Virus record (IMG/VR): IMGVR_UViG_3300029183_000168
Span: 1-5,282 of that record
Length of the DNA: 5,282 nucleotides
Reading direction: 5' to 3' (one strand)
Source of the DNA: a virus
In this document: one piece after another, positions 1 through 5,282 of the stretch
Numbering within the stretch: the stretch's first letter is position 1
Layout: every line of letters starts with the position of its first letter
Translations under genes and position numbers: made by a program
The notes under the pieces: model-generated
Told to the model about the DNA's origin: nothing
What the model saw: the letters and a program-made list of their open reading frames with translations, nothing else
The model's database searches: none

Positions 1-99
1 ATGGACCAGAATATTCAGCATGCTCGTGCTGTTACTGCTAAGGAGAAGTGGCTTGGTGACCAGGAGTTGTTGAAGTATCGTGCTGCTGAGGCTCGTTAT
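1..99. repeat. Terminal direct repeat, copy 1. It is identical to 5184..5282 and marks the overlap of a circular-genome assembly.
   Basis: A base-by-base comparison of 1..99 (atggaccagaatattcagc...gaggctcgttat) with 5184..5282 shows an exact 99/99 match. The repeat lies inside one continuous reading frame. Confidence 0.95.
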
Positions 100-333
100 G
101 GCTTTTATTTTGATAAGGATGGTAACCCAAAGGCACCTTTGCGTAACTTGTTGCAGATGGAGCATAATGCATCTATGGCTAATACTGCGAGGAGTGTTTC
201 TGAGTCGCGGTTAAGTGCGTTGTCCATTCCTGAACGTAGAGCTTTGGCTAAATTGTTTGATCAGGTTGGTTCTGGTGGTAAGAGTGTTCAGTTATTGCTG
301 CCTTTGTTGAGTCGTTTAATGTCGAGGAATTAA
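1..333 (+). CDS. VP2: DNA pilot (minor capsid) protein VP2, C-terminal 110 codons. It continues 4860..5183 across the circular junction. The ATG at position 1 is internal codon 109, not a start.
   Basis: The distance 5184-4860 is 324 nt, which is divisible by 3, so the frame of 4860.. runs directly into 1..333. The stop TAA lies at 331..333. There is no upstream sequence or RBS because the window starts mid-gene. Confidence 0.85.
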   Translation: MDQNIQHARAVTAKEKWLGDQELLKYRAAEARYGFYFDKDGNPKAPLRNLLQMEHNASMANTARSVSESRLSALSIPERRALAKLFDQVGSGGKSVQLLLPLLSRLMSRN

Positions 334-335
334 TT

Positions 336-782
336 ATGGGTATGTTCACTCGTGATCCGCGTCCTGGTGTTGATACGGGTCCTGGCCGTACTAAGCAGTC
401 ATTTAGAGATGATTGCGATATTAATGTTATTGTAGAGAAGCATGCTAAGACTGGTTTTCTGAATGCTTTGCAGGTGCCACCGCCAATGTATTTGGATTTG
501 GCTAGTGTTCCTGACTATCAGACTGCGGCTAATTATATGGCTACGTCTGAACAGTATTTTATGACTTTGCCTGCCCAGGTACGTGCTGAGTTTCAGAATG
601 ATGTTTCGCAGTTTATTGATTTCCTTGCGCAACCTGATGCGCATGAGAGGTTGAAGGATGTTGGACTAGCGGCAATTGATGAGATTGCTGATGATCCTAA
701 GTTGCCTGAACCGGAGCCTGTGGCTGGAGCGGATGCCCCGGTGCCGGCACCGGATGTTCCTGCTACGGATGTAAATCCGTAA
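336..782 (+). CDS. VP3: Internal scaffolding protein VP3 (gokushovirus-type)
   Basis: The ORF encodes 148 aa. A GAGG at 324..327 lies 8 nt upstream of the ATG, and the start is 2 nt after the VP2 stop. The N-terminal ...TKQSFRDDCDINVIVEKHAKTG... block matches what I recall as the conserved gokushovirus VP3 signature. Its position after VP2 is canonical. A second in-frame ATG at 342 is an alternative start. Confidence 0.8.
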   Translation: MGMFTRDPRPGVDTGPGRTKQSFRDDCDINVIVEKHAKTGFLNALQVPPPMYLDLASVPDYQTAANYMATSEQYFMTLPAQVRAEFQNDVSQFIDFLAQPDAHERLKDVGLAAIDEIADDPKLPEPEPVAGADAPVPAPDVPATDVNP

Positions 783-793
783 TGTTTTTTCCC

Positions 794-863
794 TGGCGGC
801 GGTCCGTCTTTTCGTACGCGTGCGCGTTCACGCGCGCGTGTGTGGGATGACGGCCCGCCGCCA
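794..863. other. Nested GC-rich stem-loop made of an outer and an inner stem
   Basis: The outer stem pairs 794..806 (tggcggcggtccg) with 851..863 (cggcccgccgcca), 13 positions with 1 mismatch. The inner stem pairs 816..826 with 831..841 around the loop ttca, giving 11 pairs of which 2 are G-T. The tracts 815..826 and 829..844 are strictly alternating pyrimidine-purine. Confidence 0.7.
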
Positions 864-870
864 ATTCCTT

Positions 871-901
871 CCGCGCGTAGCGCGGGCCCGCGTTAAGCGG
901 G
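871..901. other. Two adjacent short GC hairpins that overlap a 12-nt perfect palindrome
   Basis: The first hairpin pairs ccgcgc (871..876) with gcgcgg (880..885) around the loop gta. The second pairs cccgc (887..891) with gcggg (897..901) around the loop gttaa. The palindrome CGCGGGCCCGCG at 881..892 is its own reverse complement. Confidence 0.65.
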
Positions 902-914
902 TATTATTAAAAGT

Positions 915-953
915 AAAAATCCGGGGTTGCCGAAGGCAACGCCGGATTTTTTT
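915..953. terminator. Bidirectional rho-independent terminator
   Basis: A GC-rich stem pairs 921..930 (ccggggttgc) with 936..945 (gcaacgccgg), 9 bp plus one G-G mismatch, around the loop cgaag. Seven T follow on the + strand (947..953). An A5 run (915..919) precedes the stem, which reads as a T5 run after the same hairpin on the minus strand. Confidence 0.8.
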
Positions 954-985
954 CCTTTGTATGGCGCCAAGGCTTCGCCTGCGCT

Positions 986-1062
986 GCACACTTACTTCTT
1001 GCTGTAAGTGTGCCGACTGACACCGTCAGTCAGAGGGGGCCCCCTTGACAGAGGACCCCCTC
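986..1062. other. Three consecutive perfect stem-loops
   Basis: The first pairs gcacacttac (986..995) with gtaagtgtgc (1004..1013), 10 bp, around the loop ttcttgct. The second pairs gactgac (1015..1021) with gtcagtc (1025..1031), 7 bp, around the loop acc. The third pairs gaggggg (1033..1039) with ccccctc (1056..1062), 7 bp. The third stem-loop also contains the 12-nt palindrome AGGGGGCCCCCT (1034..1045). Confidence 0.7.
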
Positions 1063-1073
1063 GGTGTTATGTT
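1045..1073 (+). promoter_or_regulatory. Candidate sigma70-type + strand promoter
   Basis: The -35 element TTGACA (1045..1050) is a perfect consensus. A 17-nt spacer follows, then an extended -10 TG (1065..1066) and the -10 hexamer TATGTT (1068..1073, 4/6). It sits just downstream of the terminator, which is the logical position for driving a genome-length + strand transcript. The predicted start is near 1080. Confidence 0.4.
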
Positions 1074-1077
1074 TAAT

Positions 1078-1338
1078 TTATTTCTTCTTCTTTGGTGTTT
1101 CGATCTCCATTTGGTTTGGATCGGTTTCGCTGTCTTCGAGGAAAAGTATGTATGCTGAGGTTTGGTCGATGATGGCTCTCTGCCTGCGAGCCTTTGTGAG
1201 TAGGTTGGCTCTCATGGCTGTGAGTGCTGGATTTCCTGCTGGTGCTTGTGCGAGGTTGTTGAGTTCGGCCTCGGTTGCCTCGAGCGCTGCTTGCTGGCGC
1301 TGGAGCTTTGCGCGTTCGCGCGTCAGCGGAGTGGTCAT
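1078..1338 (-). CDS. Hypothetical 86-aa hydrophilic, predicted helical or coiled-coil protein with a KKKK C-terminus, encoded opposite to all other genes
   Basis: The ATG start (1338..1336) is preceded on the minus strand by AACAAGGAGGTCAA, a strong SD with 4-nt spacing. The amino-acid composition is balanced and protein-like (MTTPLTRERAKLQRQQAALEATEAELNNLAQ...). Codon position 1 is purine-rich and T-poor. A candidate promoter lies upstream and a bidirectional terminator lies downstream. I recognise no family. The fully overlapping + strand ORF 1064..1342 looks like its shadow (see noticed_but_rejected). Confidence 0.5.
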   Translation of the reverse strand: MTTPLTRERAKLQRQQAALEATEAELNNLAQAPAGNPALTAMRANLLTKARRQRAIIDQTSAYILFLEDSETDPNQMEIETPKKKK

Positions 1339-1365
1339 TTGACCTCCTTGTTAAGTGATACGTGT

Positions 1366-1394
1366 AATATAGTTGTTTCTTGGTCGAAGCGCAA
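1366..1394 (-). promoter_or_regulatory. Candidate sigma70-type promoter for the minus-strand ORF
   Basis: Read on the minus strand, the -35 element is TTGCGC (1394..1389, 3/6), followed by a 17-nt spacer and the -10 hexamer TATATT (1371..1366, 5/6). This would give a leader of roughly 20 nt that carries the AAGGAGG SD. Confidence 0.3.
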
Positions 1395-1422
1395 GTGTTT
1401 TTTGTAACAGGAGTGTAACAGT

Positions 1423-1779
1423 ATGAAGACGTGTTTGCAGATTGATTACGAAAGCCTGCGGTATTTCGAGGCGGATGAGTTTGATCATCCTGAGCGGATG
1501 AGTTTAGACTTCCTGTTACTTCTCGATCGCGTGCGTGGGCATGCGGGAGTTCCGTTTAGAATTTCGAGTGATTGGCGTGGCGACTCCCGTTCCCACGATA
1601 GCGGTTGTGCTGTTGATGTTTTATATGAGAATGAGACTGAGTTGTGGCATATTGTTTTTTCAGCTCAGTTGCTTGGTATTCGTCGGATCGGTATTTATGA
1701 TGAGCATGTGCATCTTGACATTGCTGATCGGACGATTTTCTTGCCGTCGCCCCGAATGTGGCACGGTATTTCTCGTTAG
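1423..1779 (+). CDS. Zinc D,D- or L,D-peptidase of the LAS/M15 superfamily (Peptidase_M15_3 / DUF882-like); candidate peptidoglycan hydrolase or endolysin
   Basis: The ORF encodes 118 aa. An AGGAG lies 9 nt upstream of the ATG. The H-x2-G-x-A-x-D motif SHDSGCAVD supplies H58 (1594..1596) and D65 (1615..1617). The H-x-H motif HVHLD supplies H95 and H97 (1705..1713). The surrounding pattern is F..DEF......M...FL..LD.VR...G.PF.I.S.WR. No signal peptide or TM segment is present. Confidence 0.75.
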   Translation: MKTCLQIDYESLRYFEADEFDHPERMSLDFLLLLDRVRGHAGVPFRISSDWRGDSRSHDSGCAVDVLYENETELWHIVFSAQLLGIRRIGIYDEHVHLDIADRTIFLPSPRMWHGISR

Positions 1780-1794
1780 CCTTGGAGGCTAATT

Positions 1795-1923
1795 ATGGCG
1801 AAGCGTCGCCGGATGTCTGGTCGTGGTTCGCGCCGTCAGTTTTCCCGTAGTGCCGGCGCTGGTTCTGTCCACCCTAAAAATCGGCTGCGTGCGCGGCCGA
1901 TGCGCGGAGGTATTCGTCTATAA
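1795..1923 (+). CDS. Small arginine-rich DNA-binding/packaging protein (phiX174 J / gokushovirus ORF8-VP8 analogue)
   Basis: This ORF is not in the supplied track. It encodes 42 aa: MAKRRRMSGRGSRRQFSRSAGAGSVHPKNRLRARPMRGGIRL. A GGAGG at 1784..1788 lies 6 nt before the ATG. Twelve of the 42 residues are R. The ...HPKN..RARPMRGGIRL C-terminus matches my recollection of gokushovirus ORF8-type proteins. Confidence 0.75.
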   Translation: MAKRRRMSGRGSRRQFSRSAGAGSVHPKNRLRARPMRGGIRL

Positions 1924-2030
1924 TGCCGGATGAAGTGATTCAGGCTTTGTCGTATTTGGTTGTGGCTTTTGTGAGCTGGTTCTTGCCTGCTCCGCGTTCT
2001 AAGAGTAAGCGTACTCGTAAGGACGACTAA
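1923..2030 (+). CDS. Hypothetical 35-aa single-pass membrane peptide with a basic C-terminal tail; holin or single-gene-lysis candidate
   Basis: This ORF is not in the supplied track. It encodes MPDEVIQALSYLVVAFVSWFLPAPRSKSKRTRKDD. Its ATG overlaps the stop of the preceding gene (TAATG at 1921..1925). Its stop at 2028..2030 lies 3 nt before the VP4 ATG, so the ORF exactly fills an otherwise non-coding 110-nt gap. Wobble positions are T/G-rich like the other + strand genes. A hydrophobic core of about 19 residues is followed by RSKSKRTRK. Confidence 0.45.
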   Translation: MPDEVIQALSYLVVAFVSWFLPAPRSKSKRTRKDD

Positions 2031-2033
2031 GCT

Positions 2034-2972
2034 ATGCCTTGTTATAAGCCTGTATATGGTTCGTATGCCAGAGGTAAGTTTATTCCGACTGGTGGCCATG
2101 CTGGTGATACTGCGATGGGCAGTGTTTCTTTTGGTACGCCTATGAGTGTGCCTTGTGGACGTTGCATTGGTTGCCGGTTGGAGAATTCCCGGCAGTGGGC
2201 TGTGCGTATGATGCATGAGGCCCAGATGCATGATGAGGTTTGTTTTTTGACGCTCACCTATGACAATGATCATGTCCCTGAGGATTACGGTCTTGTTAAG
2301 GATGAGTTTCCTTTGTTCATGAAGCGGCTGCGTAAGGAGATTTCTAAAGGCGACGATGGCCCGTATGGGCATCGGCAGGTTTCGTATTTCCATTGTGGTG
2401 AGTATGGTGATGAACGCAAGCGGCCCCATTACCATGCTGCCATGTTTGGTATTGATTGGCATGAGGATAGAGTGCTTGCCCGCATGTCTAAGGGCGGTTA
2501 TCCCTTGCTGTGTTCTCCACGTCTTAATAAGACGTGGGGTAAAGGTGAAGTCACTATCGGTGACTTGACCTTCGAGTCTGCTGCGTATATTGCGCGTTAT
2601 GTGACTAAGAAGGTGACTGGTGCTAAAGCTGAGACTCACTATGAGCGTGTTGATAGTGAGACCGGTGAGATTTATTCTGTTGAGCCTGAGTTCGCCACCA
2701 TGTCGCGTAATCCTGCTATTGGTAAGCGGTGGATTGAGAAGTTCCATGAGGAAGTTTTTTCCCATGATGAGGTAATTTCGCGTGGCGTTCCTGCTAAACC
2801 TCCGAGGTATTATGATAAGTTCCACGAGAAGATTGACCCGGAGGCGGCGGAAGCCGTGCGTAGGAAGCGTATGCGTGCGTTTGACGCTCGCGAGGGTACT
2901 GCGTCGCGACTCGGTGTGCGTGAGGTGTGCGCTGAAGCTGGTTTGTCTTTAACTCCCCGAGGTGATGTGTGA
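2034..2972 (+). CDS. VP4: Rolling-circle replication initiator protein VP4 (HUH endonuclease, phiX174 A-like)
   Basis: The ORF encodes 312 aa. An AAGGA lies 10 nt upstream. The N-terminal PCGRCIGCRLENSRQWAVRMMHE block is present. Motif 1 is FLTLTYD. The HUH motif is PHYHAAMF, with H132-Y-H134 at 2427..2435. The twin catalytic tyrosines lie in YIARYVTKK, with Y185 at 2586..2588 and Y189 at 2598..2600. Confidence 0.92.
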   Translation: MPCYKPVYGSYARGKFIPTGGHAGDTAMGSVSFGTPMSVPCGRCIGCRLENSRQWAVRMMHEAQMHDEVCFLTLTYDNDHVPEDYGLVKDEFPLFMKRLRKEISKGDDGPYGHRQVSYFHCGEYGDERKRPHYHAAMFGIDWHEDRVLARMSKGGYPLLCSPRLNKTWGKGEVTIGDLTFESAAYIARYVTKKVTGAKAETHYERVDSETGEIYSVEPEFATMSRNPAIGKRWIEKFHEEVFSHDEVISRGVPAKPPRYYDKFHEKIDPEAAEAVRRKRMRAFDAREGTASRLGVREVCAEAGLSLTPRGDV

Positions 2973-3259
2973 AGATTTTTGCGATTTATGATGATAAGTC
3001 TATGGCTTTTCAGCGGCCGTTTCCTGGTGAGACGGCTGGAGTGGTTACTCGTTCGTTGACGGATGTAGTTAATGACCCCAACCATGAGTTTTGTAAGTAT
3101 ACTGAGGATTTTATTCTGCATGAGCTGGGTGAATTTGATGAGCGGACAGGCGTGATCACCCCTTGTGAGACTGGCCCTGTCGTCGTGTGCCGGCTCTCGG
3201 CGCTCAAGGTGACCGGGACCCCTGAGCTGGTCGACGAGGCCAGGGAGGCGATGAAATGA
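2969..3259 (+). CDS. Small conserved gokushovirus non-structural protein (ORF5-like), function unknown
   Basis: The ORF encodes 96 aa. Its GTG start at 2969 overlaps the VP4 stop (GTGA). A GAGG at 2959..2962 lies 6 nt upstream. The sequence (M)KIFAIYDDKSMAFQRPF...VNDPNHEFCKYTEDFILHELGEFDERTG resembles a small protein I recall between VP4 and VP1 in gokushoviruses. The first in-frame ATG is at 3002, which would remove the conserved-looking N-terminus. Confidence 0.7.
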   Translation: MKIFAIYDDKSMAFQRPFPGETAGVVTRSLTDVVNDPNHEFCKYTEDFILHELGEFDERTGVITPCETGPVVVCRLSALKVTGTPELVDEAREAMK

Positions 3260-4857
3260 TGCGTGTGCCATCCACTCAACAGCATCGTTTCAGTGAGGTT
3301 CCACAGGCGAATATCCCGCGTTCGTCGTTTGATCGTTCGCATGGATATAAGACTACTTTTGATGCTGGTTATTTGATTCCGTTCTATTGTGATGAAGCGT
3401 TACCAGGTGATACGTTTAGTATGCGTGTTACTGCTTTTGCGCGATTAGCTACGCCGCTTAAGCCCATAATGGACAACTTGTTTATGGACTTTTTCTTTTT
3501 TGCGGTGCCTAATCGGTTGCTTTGGAATAATTGGGAGAAGTTCAATGGAGCCCAGGATGATCCGGGAGATAGCATTAGTTTTACTGTGCCAACTGTGTCT
3601 GGTTCTAATTTCCCTGCTGCTGGCTCTCTTGAGGATTATTTCGGTATTCCTGTTGCTGATTATAGCCCTGAAACTGTTACTTGGAACAACCTTCATGGAC
3701 GGGCATATAATTTTATTTGGAATGACTGGTTTAGAGATGAGAATCTACAGGATAGTGTAGTTGTTGATTTAGATGATGGCCCGGACAATCGTTCGGATTA
3801 TGTGTTGTTGAAGCGTGGCAAGCGCCATGATTATTTTACTTCGTGCTTGCCTTGGCCGCAGAAGGGTACTGCTGTTTCGATTCCTCTTGGTACGCAGGCT
3901 CCTGTAAAGGGTATTGGTAAGGAGTCTCTTGCTGAGACGACTGGTTCACAGACTGTGTTCGAGACTGGTGAGAGTGCTGCAACGTCTTTCGCTCGTTGGC
4001 ATAGTTTTGCTTCTGGTGGTGCTGATGAGATTTTCGTGGAGACTGTATCGCCGGGATATCCGGCTGTTTTTGCTGATCTTACTAATGCTACCGCTGCTAC
4101 TATTAATGACCTGCGTAATGCTTTCCAGACGCAGAAGTTGATTGAGCGTGATGCGCGTGGTGGTACTAGGTATATTGAGATTGTGCGTTCACACTTTGGT
4201 GTCATTTCGGATGATGCACGGATGCAGCGCCCCGAGTATCTCGGTGGTGGTACTGTTATGGTTAATGTGAGCCCTGTTGCTAATACTTCTGGTAATACCG
4301 GAGGTTCTGAGAATGTTAATCAAGGTGACCTGGCCGCGTTTGGTACTGCTTCTGCTCATGGTATTGGTTTTCATAAGTCTTTTACCGAGCATTGTACTTT
4401 ACTTGGTCTTGTTTGTGTCCGCGCTGATTTGACGTATCAGCAAGGTATGGAGCGTATGTGGTCGCGCCAGACTCGGTATGATTTTTATTGGCCGGCTCTG
4501 GCTCATATTGGTGAGCAAGCGGTTCTGAATAAGGAGATTTATACTACTGGCGTGGATGCTACTGATGATGCTGTTTTTGGTTATCAAGAGCGTTATGCGG
4601 AGTACCGGTATAAGCCTTCGAGGTTGACTGGCCTAATGCGTTCGACGCAAACTAATAGTTTGGATATCTGGCATTTGGGTCAAGAGTTTACTACTGCTCC
4701 TGCGCTTAATGCCGCCTTTATTGAGGAGAATCCTCCTGTCGATCGTGTCATTGCTGTGACTACTGAGCCGCATTTTATTTTTGATGCTTATCTTAGTCTC
4801 CGGTGTGCTCGACCGATGCCGTTGTACGGTGTTCCTGGTAATATTGATAGGTTCTAA
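3256..4857 (+). CDS. VP1: Major capsid protein VP1 (Microviridae F-protein family)
   Basis: The ORF encodes 533 aa. An AGGGAGG lies 7 nt upstream, and the ATG overlaps the previous stop (ATGA). The hallmark blocks FSEVPQANIPRSSFDRSHGYKTTFDAGYLIPFYCDEALPGDTF, MDNLFMDFFFFAVPNRLLW and TINDLRNAFQTQKLIERDARGGTRYIEIVRSHFGV are present. Confidence 0.95.
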   Translation: MMRVPSTQQHRFSEVPQANIPRSSFDRSHGYKTTFDAGYLIPFYCDEALPGDTFSMRVTAFARLATPLKPIMDNLFMDFFFFAVPNRLLWNNWEKFNGAQDDPGDSISFTVPTVSGSNFPAAGSLEDYFGIPVADYSPETVTWNNLHGRAYNFIWNDWFRDENLQDSVVVDLDDGPDNRSDYVLLKRGKRHDYFTSCLPWPQKGTAVSIPLGTQAPVKGIGKESLAETTGSQTVFETGESAATSFARWHSFASGGADEIFVETVSPGYPAVFADLTNATAATINDLRNAFQTQKLIERDARGGTRYIEIVRSHFGVISDDARMQRPEYLGGGTVMVNVSPVANTSGNTGGSENVNQGDLAAFGTASAHGIGFHKSFTEHCTLLGLVCVRADLTYQQGMERMWSRQTRYDFYWPALAHIGEQAVLNKEIYTTGVDATDDAVFGYQERYAEYRYKPSRLTGLMRSTQTNSLDIWHLGQEFTTAPALNAAFIEENPPVDRVIAVTTEPHFIFDAYLSLRCARPMPLYGVPGNIDRF

Positions 4858-4859
4858 TT

Positions 4860-5282
4860 ATGGATCCGCTGACTATCGCTGCTGTTGGCTTGCCTTTGTT
4901 AGGTGCTGCTTCTTCGGCTTTTGGTCAACGCTCTGCTAATAAGACTAATGTTAAATTGGCGCGTGAGCGCATGCAGTTTGAAGAGCAGATGAGTTCTACT
5001 GCTTGGCAACGTGGTACTGATGATATGCGTAAAGCTGGCATCAATCCTATGTTGGCCGCTGGTCTTGGTGGTGCTACCGGTGGTAGTGGTGCGCAGGCTC
5101 AAGTTGGTAATGTTGGTGCTGCTGCTACCGAAGGTGCATCTAGTGCTATGGCTATGCGTGTTGCTAAGAAGAATGTTGATCTCATGGACCAGAATATTCA
5201 GCATGCTCGTGCTGTTACTGCTAAGGAGAAGTGGCTTGGTGACCAGGAGTTGTTGAAGTATCGTGCTGCTGAGGCTCGTTAT
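4860..5282 (+). CDS. VP2: DNA pilot (minor capsid) protein VP2, N-terminal part. It is open to the window end and continues at 1..333 in the circular molecule, giving 218 aa in total.
   Basis: This ORF is not in the track because it has no stop within the window. The ATG at 4860 lies 2 nt after the VP1 stop. I translated it by hand with no stop through 5282: MDPLTIAAVGLPLLGAASSAFGQRSANKTNVKLARERMQFEEQMSSTAWQRGTDDMRKAGINPMLAAGLGG... The block N..LA....FQE.MS.TA.QR...DM..AG.NPMLA is, as I recall it, the conserved VP2 signature. Confidence 0.88.
   Translation, partial: MDPLTIAAVGLPLLGAASSAFGQRSANKTNVKLARERMQFEEQMSSTAWQRGTDDMRKAGINPMLAAGLGGATGGSGAQAQVGNVGAAATEGASSAMAMRVAKKNVDLMDQNIQHARAVTAKEKWLGDQELLKYRAAEARY
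5184..5282. repeat. Terminal direct repeat, copy 2, identical to 1..99
   Basis: It is an exact 99-nt match to the start of the window. Confidence 0.95.

Follow-up and report, generated by a model that had tools for sequence, protein, structure and literature searches.

A conserved 35-residue membrane peptide gene in a gokushovirus-like microvirus is a candidate holin-like partner of an M15-type peptidase

Among microviruses outside the phiX174 group, members that encode a peptidoglycan peptidase without a signal sequence raise a specific question about the lysis route: how could such an enzyme cross the inner membrane? We addressed it for IMG/VR virus record IMGVR_UViG_3300029183_000168, positions 1 to 5,282 (the window, 5,282 nucleotides in total), which encodes a predicted LAS/M15-type peptidase and, between its J-like gene and the VP4 gene, an open reading frame (ORF) of 35 codons, here termed the mini-gene, that a first-pass annotation had proposed as a holin or single-gene-lysis candidate. 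A full-text literature search found no paper in which a microviral endolysin is assigned a holin or membrane partner, or in which inner-membrane crossing by a signal-less enzyme is explained. Our analysis indicates that the mini-gene belongs to a small conserved family, family A, found alongside peptidase genes, and suggests a holin-like accessory role for its product.

The mini-gene translates into MPDEVIQALSYLVVAFVSWFLPAPRSKSKRTRKDD, with an acidic N-terminus, a helix, a P-x-P-R-x-K motif and a basic tail (Table 1). AlphaFold, run with a three-sequence alignment, returned a single helix at residues 3–20 followed by a disordered tail, and the most hydrophobic 17-mer of the peptide (residues 5–21) has a mean Kyte–Doolittle value of 2.04, with a net charge of −2 in its N-terminal and +4 in its C-terminal flank; by the positive-inside rule the tail is predicted to be cytoplasmic. 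The coordinates and the tripartite architecture proposed earlier were thus borne out by sequence, hydropathy and AlphaFold, and so were the junctions: the stop codon of the J-like gene and the ATG of the mini-gene share a TAATG overlap, 3 nucleotides separate the mini-gene stop (TAA, 2028–2030) from the VP4 start (ATG at 2034), and the mini-gene begins 143 nucleotides past the end of the peptidase gene (1779). It occupies its own 110-nucleotide slot between J and VP4 and is not embedded out of frame in another gene. Two Shine–Dalgarno-like motifs may serve this arrangement, a GGAGG 12 nucleotides upstream of the mini-gene ATG and an AAGGA 10 nucleotides upstream of the VP4 ATG. The former is encoded in the RGG codons of the J-protein ending ...PMRGGIRL (1901–1923 in the window, with the stop codon), which is common to the 66 distinct loci of our slot survey, defined as loci with both J and VP4 located. 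Since this GGAGG lies just upstream of the VP4 start in most relatives, it is probably the VP4 ribosome-binding site there; in the window, this J-encoded site appears to have passed to the mini-gene, and VP4 has an AAGGA of its own. No terminator was found between J and VP4.

An open frame with a hydrophobic stretch is by itself not beyond chance. Random 111-nucleotide strings of the same composition contained an open frame in 47% of cases and one that was also equally hydrophobic in 3%, and of the 34 segments that run along the + strand for 35 residues or more without a stop, 14 are as hydrophobic as the mini-gene peptide. This is a consequence of the T-rich, A-poor wobble positions, which render off-frame translations systematically hydrophobic; long, hydrophobic off-frames of the + strand (for example 2356–2568 and 5011–5256) are compositional artefacts and a trap for transmembrane mini-ORF hunts. 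The third-position composition of the mini-gene (A.03, C.11, G.43, T.43) resembles that of the other genes (A.05–.10, T.38–.58), and a third-position A of.20–.26 sets the two alternative frames of this DNA apart from the coding pattern. The agreement with genome-wide wobble usage that had been noted before therefore applies, and to the mini-gene frame only.

The mini-gene stands out from chance because it is conserved in other genomes. A HMMER scan of 1.84 billion representative proteins returned, besides the peptide itself, two short homologues, one of 37 residues (MNVPDDVWTALSHLLVAIVAWVVPFPRNKGRRDRHDD, P0124, E 2.9e-4) and one of 44 residues (...VPDEVVQAVSYLVIALVGWLLPSPRRKQ, P0123, E 1.4e-4), both in microvirus genomes (L095, 5027 nucleotides; L096/L109, 4689 nucleotides). 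Thirteen positions are invariant across the family (P2, D3, V5, A8, S10, L12, A15, V17, W19, P22, P24, R25 and K27). Over the 26-codon core, identity was.54–.62 at the first,.81–.96 at the second and.19–.38 at the third codon position, with a proportion of non-synonymous differences (pN) of.21–.32 and a saturated proportion of synonymous differences (pS) of at least.75; together, these values are a signature of purifying selection in the mini-gene frame. All three peptides have a predicted mean hydropathy of 2.0–2.2 over their best 17-mer and share the charge asymmetry, with −2 to −3 on the N flank and +2 to +4 on the C flank. Based on these comparisons, the mini-gene is very probably a genuine gene. 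The concern that automated annotation would miss it proved wrong, as two Logan assemblies of this virus (L088 and L089) already have it called as a gene of 35 residues and it is present in the protein library (P0121). Four extra contigs with an identical VP4 carry an identical mini-ORF and therefore give no population-level information.

Family A appears to be an undescribed and very rare peptide family. A profile search of 5.8 billion proteins gave no member beyond the three, and a degenerate pattern of the 68-nucleotide core DNA had no match in IMG/VR, GTDB genomes or JGI metagenome contigs, the last a non-exhaustive collection that did not return JGI contig L090. The peptide matched nothing in Pfam, PHROGs, NCBIfam, PADLOC or PDB sequences, including any described holin family; this missing homology is not decisive because holins are polyphyletic. 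Likewise, no homology to phiX174 E was detected, as neither Pfam nor PHROG gave a match to the peptide at E-values up to 0.1 or 1. One further candidate, a 266-residue repetitive protein (P0122), in which residues 14–31 of the peptide were matched in four repeats (E 6.7e-5, motif SGW[FY]EPRPE[DN]KSKR), was set aside as probably a compositional match to W-x-x-P-x-P-R-x-K-S-K-R.

A peptidase homologue is present in all three family A lineages, each time in a different gene order. The window has the order peptidase–J–A–VP4, L095 has J–peptidase–A with the start of A overlapping the peptidase stop (ATGA), and L096/L109 has J–A–peptidase with GTGA overlaps on both sides of A, so that family A directly adjoins the peptidase gene in two of the three lineages. 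These three orders indicate a linkage of family A to the peptidase rather than to J or VP4. The three genomes fall in two clades. VP1 is 43% identical between the window and L095 or L109; identity is 27–38% for the peptidases and 58–69% for the peptide cores. Elsewhere in this part of the family the peptidase is rare: none of the 86 VP1- or VP4-related microviruses in IMG/VR carries it or family A.

The evidence on the partner gene is consistent with an M15/LAS peptidase, which is presumed to be an endolysin from its sequence and modelled fold. It contains the motifs S-H58-x2-G-x-A-V-D65 and H95-x-H97, of which H58, G61, A63, D65 and H97 are invariant in the peptidase and 37 homologues, and H95 in smaller alignments of 4 and 13 sequences. 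The AlphaFold model has a predicted local distance difference test score of 92.7, and its best PDB matches in Foldseek were of the LAS group, namely the Streptomyces Zn DD-peptidase 1lbu (probability 1.00, TM 0.56), ChiX, the RB49 L-alanoyl-D-glutamate endolysin, VldE and MepA, albeit at weak E-values (6.7e-3 and above); the peptidase profile also weakly matched Hedgehog N-domains. The window peptidase itself had no Pfam or NCBIfam match, many of its homologues (E 1e-12 to 1e-23) have the PF08291 Peptidase_M15_3 domain or bear the name zinc D-Ala-D-Ala carboxypeptidase, and the endolysin family phrog_894 matched it at E 0.04. By inspection, its N-terminus (MKTCLQIDYESLRYFEADEF...) is without a hydrophobic signal. 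Furthermore, homologues in dsDNA (double-stranded DNA) phage fragments lie in lysis-cassette settings: in L114 (3926–4823) a 70-residue gene with two transmembrane domains overlaps the homologue start, in L097 (3065–4587) genes with transmembrane domains flank the homologue on both sides and a spanin-like coiled-coil transmembrane protein follows downstream, and L118 (242–917) is a further such case. The homologue of Pseudoalteromonas phage H105/1 is labelled endolysin in RefSeq. The earlier assignment as a signal-less M15 peptidase is hence supported by the H-x6-D and H-x-H motifs, the fold, the PF08291 domains of the homologues and this cassette context. Roux et al. took the same view in 2012, proposing 11 microviral M15_3 genes as endolysins (PMC3394797).

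Comparison with the closest relative, L084/L085 (VP4 74% and VP1 79% identical), revealed the same order of peptidase, J, a small ORF and VP4. The window and L084 align at 74–77% on both sides of an unalignable segment at 1915–2069, and L084 is without family A, its slot holding instead an unrelated 46-residue ORF ending ...RYQISHWLGWVAAIAQAIATIVSSV, termed family B. Judged from this alignment, the difference at 1915–2069 is a cassette swap. The corresponding slot of L108 and L113 also holds family B, whose start there lies in a GTGA overlap; its members comprise 27–46 residues, with a basic N-terminus and then a C-terminal Ala-rich hydrophobic helix W-x-G-W-[VI]-A-A-I-A, a mirror of the family A architecture. 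Between L084 and L108, pN was.10 with saturated pS, and identity was.94 at the second against.33 at the third codon position, by which measure family B is under purifying selection. An ATG-frame ORF of L084 (MSREIVGVLML...) was rejected because stop codons interrupt it in L108 and L113, and the conserved family B frame is therefore the TTG/GTG frame; a 30-residue ORF of L093 was likewise rejected as a member (11–28% identity, no match to the hidden Markov model). Within one clade of peptidase-bearing microviruses, one slot is thus predicted to hold either of two unrelated hydrophobic-helix genes. The expectation of synonymous-biased conservation in related microviruses accordingly held for two distant genomes and failed for the closest relative, from which the ORF is absent.

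In the slot survey, the J stop and VP4 start mostly overlap or lie at most 20 nucleotides apart, and about 14 of the 66 loci have gaps of 43–197 nucleotides, some with hairpins only and a few with small ORFs. Peptidase-less genomes with such ORFs include L048 (3874–3966; a 30-residue amphipathic ORF) and L069 (3685–3785; a highly basic ORF). This slot resembles a general hotspot for insertions, possibly of gokushovirus lysis genes. A hydrophobic ORF filling the gap was observed in 4 of 7 peptidase-positive compared with 1 of 58 peptidase-negative lineages, a difference that is indicative only, given that the Fisher test (p 2.5e-4) carries no phylogenetic correction.

Three further peptidase-bearing genomes (L103, L107 and L119) have the order peptidase–J–VP4 with no gap and no junction mini-gene. 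In these, the +1 frame of VP4 contains an ORF of 84–85 residues with a transmembrane segment (...TMRCFLVL.FW....), termed family C. An ORF of this length is not exceptional under synonymous shuffling (P.12–.25). The third-position identity of VP4, in contrast, is.60–.74 inside the overlap versus.39–.43 outside; where the encoded amino acid agrees, the codons are identical more often inside the overlap than outside it (odds ratios 2.0–4.2; Fisher p 7e-4, 5e-4 and.086), and the peak of synonymous conservation falls on VP4 codons 71–150. The family C hidden Markov model matched only these three genomes. We read family C as a third, overprinted membrane-protein gene, whose position inside VP4 recalls that of phiX174 E inside D. 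The window has a +1-frame ORF of its own in VP4 (2356..2568, 70 residues, hydrophobic), which we rejected as compositional, with a shuffling P of.47 and no conservation in L084 or L108. Every peptidase-bearing microvirus lineage examined in detail thus appears to have a conserved small hydrophobic-helix protein. Two 6-kb alpavirus-like records lie outside this detailed comparison; peptidase-positive MG945442, which is alpavirus-like, has an unconvincing 47-residue ORF after the peptidase.

We consider a holin-like release of the peptidase the best explanation of these sequence and model data, and rate its chance of being correct as about even. According to this model, the peptide would be made late, its gene being read by way of the TAATG overlap from the + strand message that also encodes the J-like protein. 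The peptide would adopt a topology with the acidic N-terminus in the periplasm, a helix of ~18 residues spanning the inner membrane and the basic tail in the cytoplasm, accumulate in the membrane and oligomerise; by permeabilising or depolarising the inner membrane, it would give the cytoplasmic, signal-less 13-kDa peptidase access to the peptidoglycan, so that the two would form a minimal holin–endolysin pair. The bioinformatic criteria of the Young laboratory for holins are small size, at least one predicted transmembrane domain, a C-terminus that is charged and a genetic link to an endolysin, and the peptide has all of these, with the sidedness of its C-terminus predicted. Its gene, as far as the genome comparisons tell, behaves as a swappable cassette, with the unrelated families B and C in other peptidase-bearing microviruses, and the replacement of family A by family B in L084 is easier to reconcile with a swappable lysis accessory than with a refutation. 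The holin candidacy put forward by the first-pass annotation therefore gains from the conservation of the gene and its tie to the peptidase, is weakened by the closest relative lacking it, and keeps its conditional character. More broadly, peptidase-bearing microviruses may run a modular holin and endolysin lysis that includes the smallest known holin (28–37 residues, one helix) and for which at least three unrelated families (A, B and C) would have been taken up and swapped, a generalisation that we put forward tentatively and hold to be somewhat short of an even chance.

Several observations weigh against a holin-like function. The co-occurrence with the peptidase rests on just three family A lineages in two clades. 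A 27-residue transmembrane ORF (VNNLANLLCILLALGLIGASLGFTGII) occupies the J–VP4 slot of L030 (3094–3177), a genome with no peptidase, and small membrane peptides at this slot therefore need not depend on the enzyme. The helix is moderately hydrophobic, with a summed Hessa-scale value of +0.6 to +1.1 kcal/mol over 17 residues. The invariant P2, D3, S10, W19 and P22-x-P24-R25 suggest, by analogy with the 37-residue LysM and its action on MurJ (PMC12506998), a specific binding surface more than a generic pore former, and to our knowledge no holin as small as 28–37 residues with a single transmembrane domain has been experimentally proven. A VP4 profile gave only distant GTDB matches (35–43% identity) in metagenome-assembled genomes of Bdellovibrionales, Opitutaceae and Bacillota, too distant to point to a host or its envelope type.

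Part of this evidence would also suit a single-gene-lysis protein (amurin) that binds and inhibits the supply of peptidoglycan precursors at a membrane step (MraY, MurJ or similar), with the peptidase auxiliary or serving another purpose. Polar, aromatic and proline residues at invariant positions point to a specific interface, and L030, which has no peptidase, also fills this slot with a small transmembrane ORF. Known single-gene-lysis genes are usually overprinted in another gene, however, which the mini-gene is not, and family A has been found only alongside the gene for a signal-less peptidase, adjoining it in two of three lineages; such a cytoplasmic muralytic enzyme would be useless without an export route. 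Single-gene lysis further presupposes a genome with no muralytic enzyme, and this one encodes an LAS/M15 peptidase. Single-gene lysis is an established microvirus strategy (PMC3394797, PMC11946311), and size and single-helix architecture equal those of LysM (37 residues, single span; PMC12506998), but the peptide has no similarity to a solved single-gene-lysis protein or other PDB chain, nor to Pfam or PHROG families, phiX174 E included. On balance we judge this explanation unlikely, if still a serious competitor. A membrane role outside lysis (superinfection exclusion, a regulator or antiholin acting on another lysis factor, a membrane tether for replication or assembly), with the peptidase acting in wall penetration at entry, would agree with the position of the mini-gene between a DNA-binding J-like gene and the replication initiator, and with the Ebor phage, where traces of the hydrolase occur in virions and a 45-residue membrane protein has no assigned role (PMC11980548). 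We regard it as rather improbable: family A follows the peptidase through three gene orders and not J or VP4, three unrelated small hydrophobic-helix genes accompany the enzyme, and its homologues reside in dsDNA-phage lysis cassettes.

A cationic tail that attacks the outer membrane after the wall has been cut, in the manner of a spanin or disruptin, could account for the strongly basic C-terminus, and no spanin-like gene was seen in the ORF list of the genome. The positive-inside rule, however, places this tail in the cytoplasm, and the L096 homologue has only RRKQ there, so that a long cationic tail is not conserved; such a function seems very improbable. Least credible of all is that the mini-gene is a chance spacer ORF, hydrophobic through T-rich composition. 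Beyond the frequencies of open and hydrophobic frames given above, comparable J–VP4 gaps elsewhere that hold hairpins only would favor such an origin. It is contradicted by the amino-acid-level homologues in two distant genomes, with third positions saturated and second positions 81–96% identical, by coding-type wobble usage confined to the mini-gene frame and by the conserved start and stop overlaps; the segment also shows no unusual RNA fold (z −1.15), by which a non-coding spacer was rejected.

The genome around the mini-gene is that of a gokushovirus-like microvirus with a circular genome of 5183 nucleotides, as positions 1–99 recur exactly at 5184–5282 (a 99-nucleotide terminal repeat); VP2 is split because the record start is arbitrary on a circular genome assembled with overlap. 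Megablast against GenBank phages gave nothing beyond short VP1 matches, and a VP4 search of JGI metagenomes confirmed no relative. The GC-rich stretch following VP3 may be an origin or a terminator–promoter region: it contains a palindrome at 921–945 (ccggggttgccgaaggcaacgccgg) followed by a T-run and a promoter-like TTGACA/TATGTT site at 1045–1073, and similar hairpins are found after VP3 in relatives. The minus-strand gene beyond it encodes a protein 61% identical to the product of a minus-strand ORF in L084 (2049–2315); in L103 and L107, too, a similar minus-strand ORF precedes the peptidase on its upstream side, and L001 has one as well. This protein had no family in NCBIfam or PADLOC and weak matches only in Pfam. 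Roux et al. termed a complementary-strand gene in Microviridae "highly unusual" (PMC3394797).

Table 1 Coordinates of features in the window and of families B and C in related genomes
Feature	Position	Strand	Remarks
VP2	4860 across junction to 333
VP3 scaffold	336-782		PF09675
GC-rich non-coding stretch	783-1077		~300 nucleotides; several palindromes
86-residue coiled-coil-like gene	1078-1338	minus
LAS/M15-type metallopeptidase	1423..1779	+	118 residues, without signal
J/VP8-like arginine-rich DNA-binding protein	1795..1923	+	42 residues; phrog_10695, E 1.4e-12
GGAGG Shine–Dalgarno-like motif	1906..1910	+	within conserved ...RGG... codons of J; putative function
TAATG overlap, J-like gene/mini-gene	1921..1925	+	J stop TAA 1921-1923; mini-gene ATG 1923-1925
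Mini-gene (family A)	1923..2030	+	35-residue predicted single-pass membrane peptide
Predicted membrane helix, coding stretch	1929..1985	+	AlphaFold helix residues 3-20; top hydrophobic 17-mer residues 5-21
Basic C-terminal tail RSKSKRTRKDD	1995..2027	+	charge sign kept in all three homologues
AAGGA Shine–Dalgarno-like motif	2019..2023	+	in last codons of mini-gene; putative function
VP4 replication initiator	2034..2972	+	PF23343, E 1.3e-19; phrog_942, E 1e-108
VP5	2969-3259
VP1	3256-4857		PF02305
Family B	L084 2884-3024; L085 2471-2611; L108 2161-2280; L113 663-746		J-VP4 slot
Family C	L103 3001-3258; L107 996-1253; L119 2180-2434		+1 frame of VP4

If the holin model is true, a peptide of 35 residues would set the lower size limit of holins, and if it is instead a single-gene-lysis protein, it would be a new "protein antibiotic"; in either case, family A is a concrete, conserved candidate for the membrane component, with two unrelated analogues. 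Peptides of this size can do what the holin model requires, as is shown by the membrane peptides of type I toxin–antitoxin systems (TisB, 29 residues; Hok, ~50; Fst, 33), single helices that depolarise or permeabilise the inner membrane. They differ in being chromosomal or plasmid-borne, controlled by antisense RNA and without a link to an endolysin, and the Pfam and NCBIfam searches gave no similarity to the peptide. Conserved prolines at the end of the helix are a trait that the peptide shares with the single-gene lysis proteins LysM and phiX174 E, and phiX174 E needs its Pro21. LysM (SglM) of levivirus M, a 37-residue inhibitor of MurJ (PMC12506998), and phiX174 E, a 91-residue inhibitor of MraY (PMC3394797 and its references), resemble the mini-gene peptide in size class, in having one N-terminal membrane helix with a basic region behind it and in belonging to a minimal phage genome. 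The window genome differs in that it also encodes a muralytic enzyme, its mini-gene is not overprinted, and the peptide has no similarity to the deposited LysM complex.

The holins of dsDNA phages, which Young and co-workers define as a functional class, include lambda S105, the single-transmembrane-domain class III protein T of T4 and the pinholin S68 of phage 21; characterised members have ~60–220 residues and mostly two to three transmembrane domains. Like these, family A is a small membrane protein with a charged C-terminus, predicted here to be cytoplasmic, encoded beside or near a soluble, signal-less endolysin. Holins are also highly diverse and non-orthologously replaced between related phages, as families A, B and C appear to replace one another here. 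The mini-gene peptide differs from them in its 28–37 residues, its one helix, its lack of a dual-start motif and its place in a 5.2-kb single-stranded DNA (ssDNA) genome, and hole formation is in its case a proposal. A 2025 paper states that ssDNA phages lack the machinery of holin and hydrolase (PMC11946311); were the modular two-component reading true, the textbook split between single-gene lysis in ssDNA phages and holin–endolysin lysis in dsDNA phages would be overturned.

Other microviruses offer the closest parallel, in that an acquired peptidoglycan hydrolase is thought to act in lysis. Unknown ORFs adjoin 5 of the 11 microviral peptidase genes of Roux et al. (PMC3394797), and in Occultatumvirinae the peptidase is listed as the likely lysis gene (PMC11499846). 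For Ebor, Gp7 was shown in 2025 to degrade peptidoglycan, and Gp1, a predicted membrane protein of 45 residues, is listed without comment (PMC11980548); for the Ebor enzyme, HHpred gave another solved structure, 6SSC_A, as its match, and the enzyme may therefore not be of the M15 type. A microviral endolysin is thus not new, having been proposed since 2012 (PMC3394797) and verified for Ebor in 2025 (PMC11980548). In contrast to these systems, of which Ebor is likened here by the description of Gp1 only, the present case comprises a specific peptide family that is conserved and co-occurs with the peptidase. The new element is a candidate accessory of the holin type, in minimal form and in an unexpected virus family.

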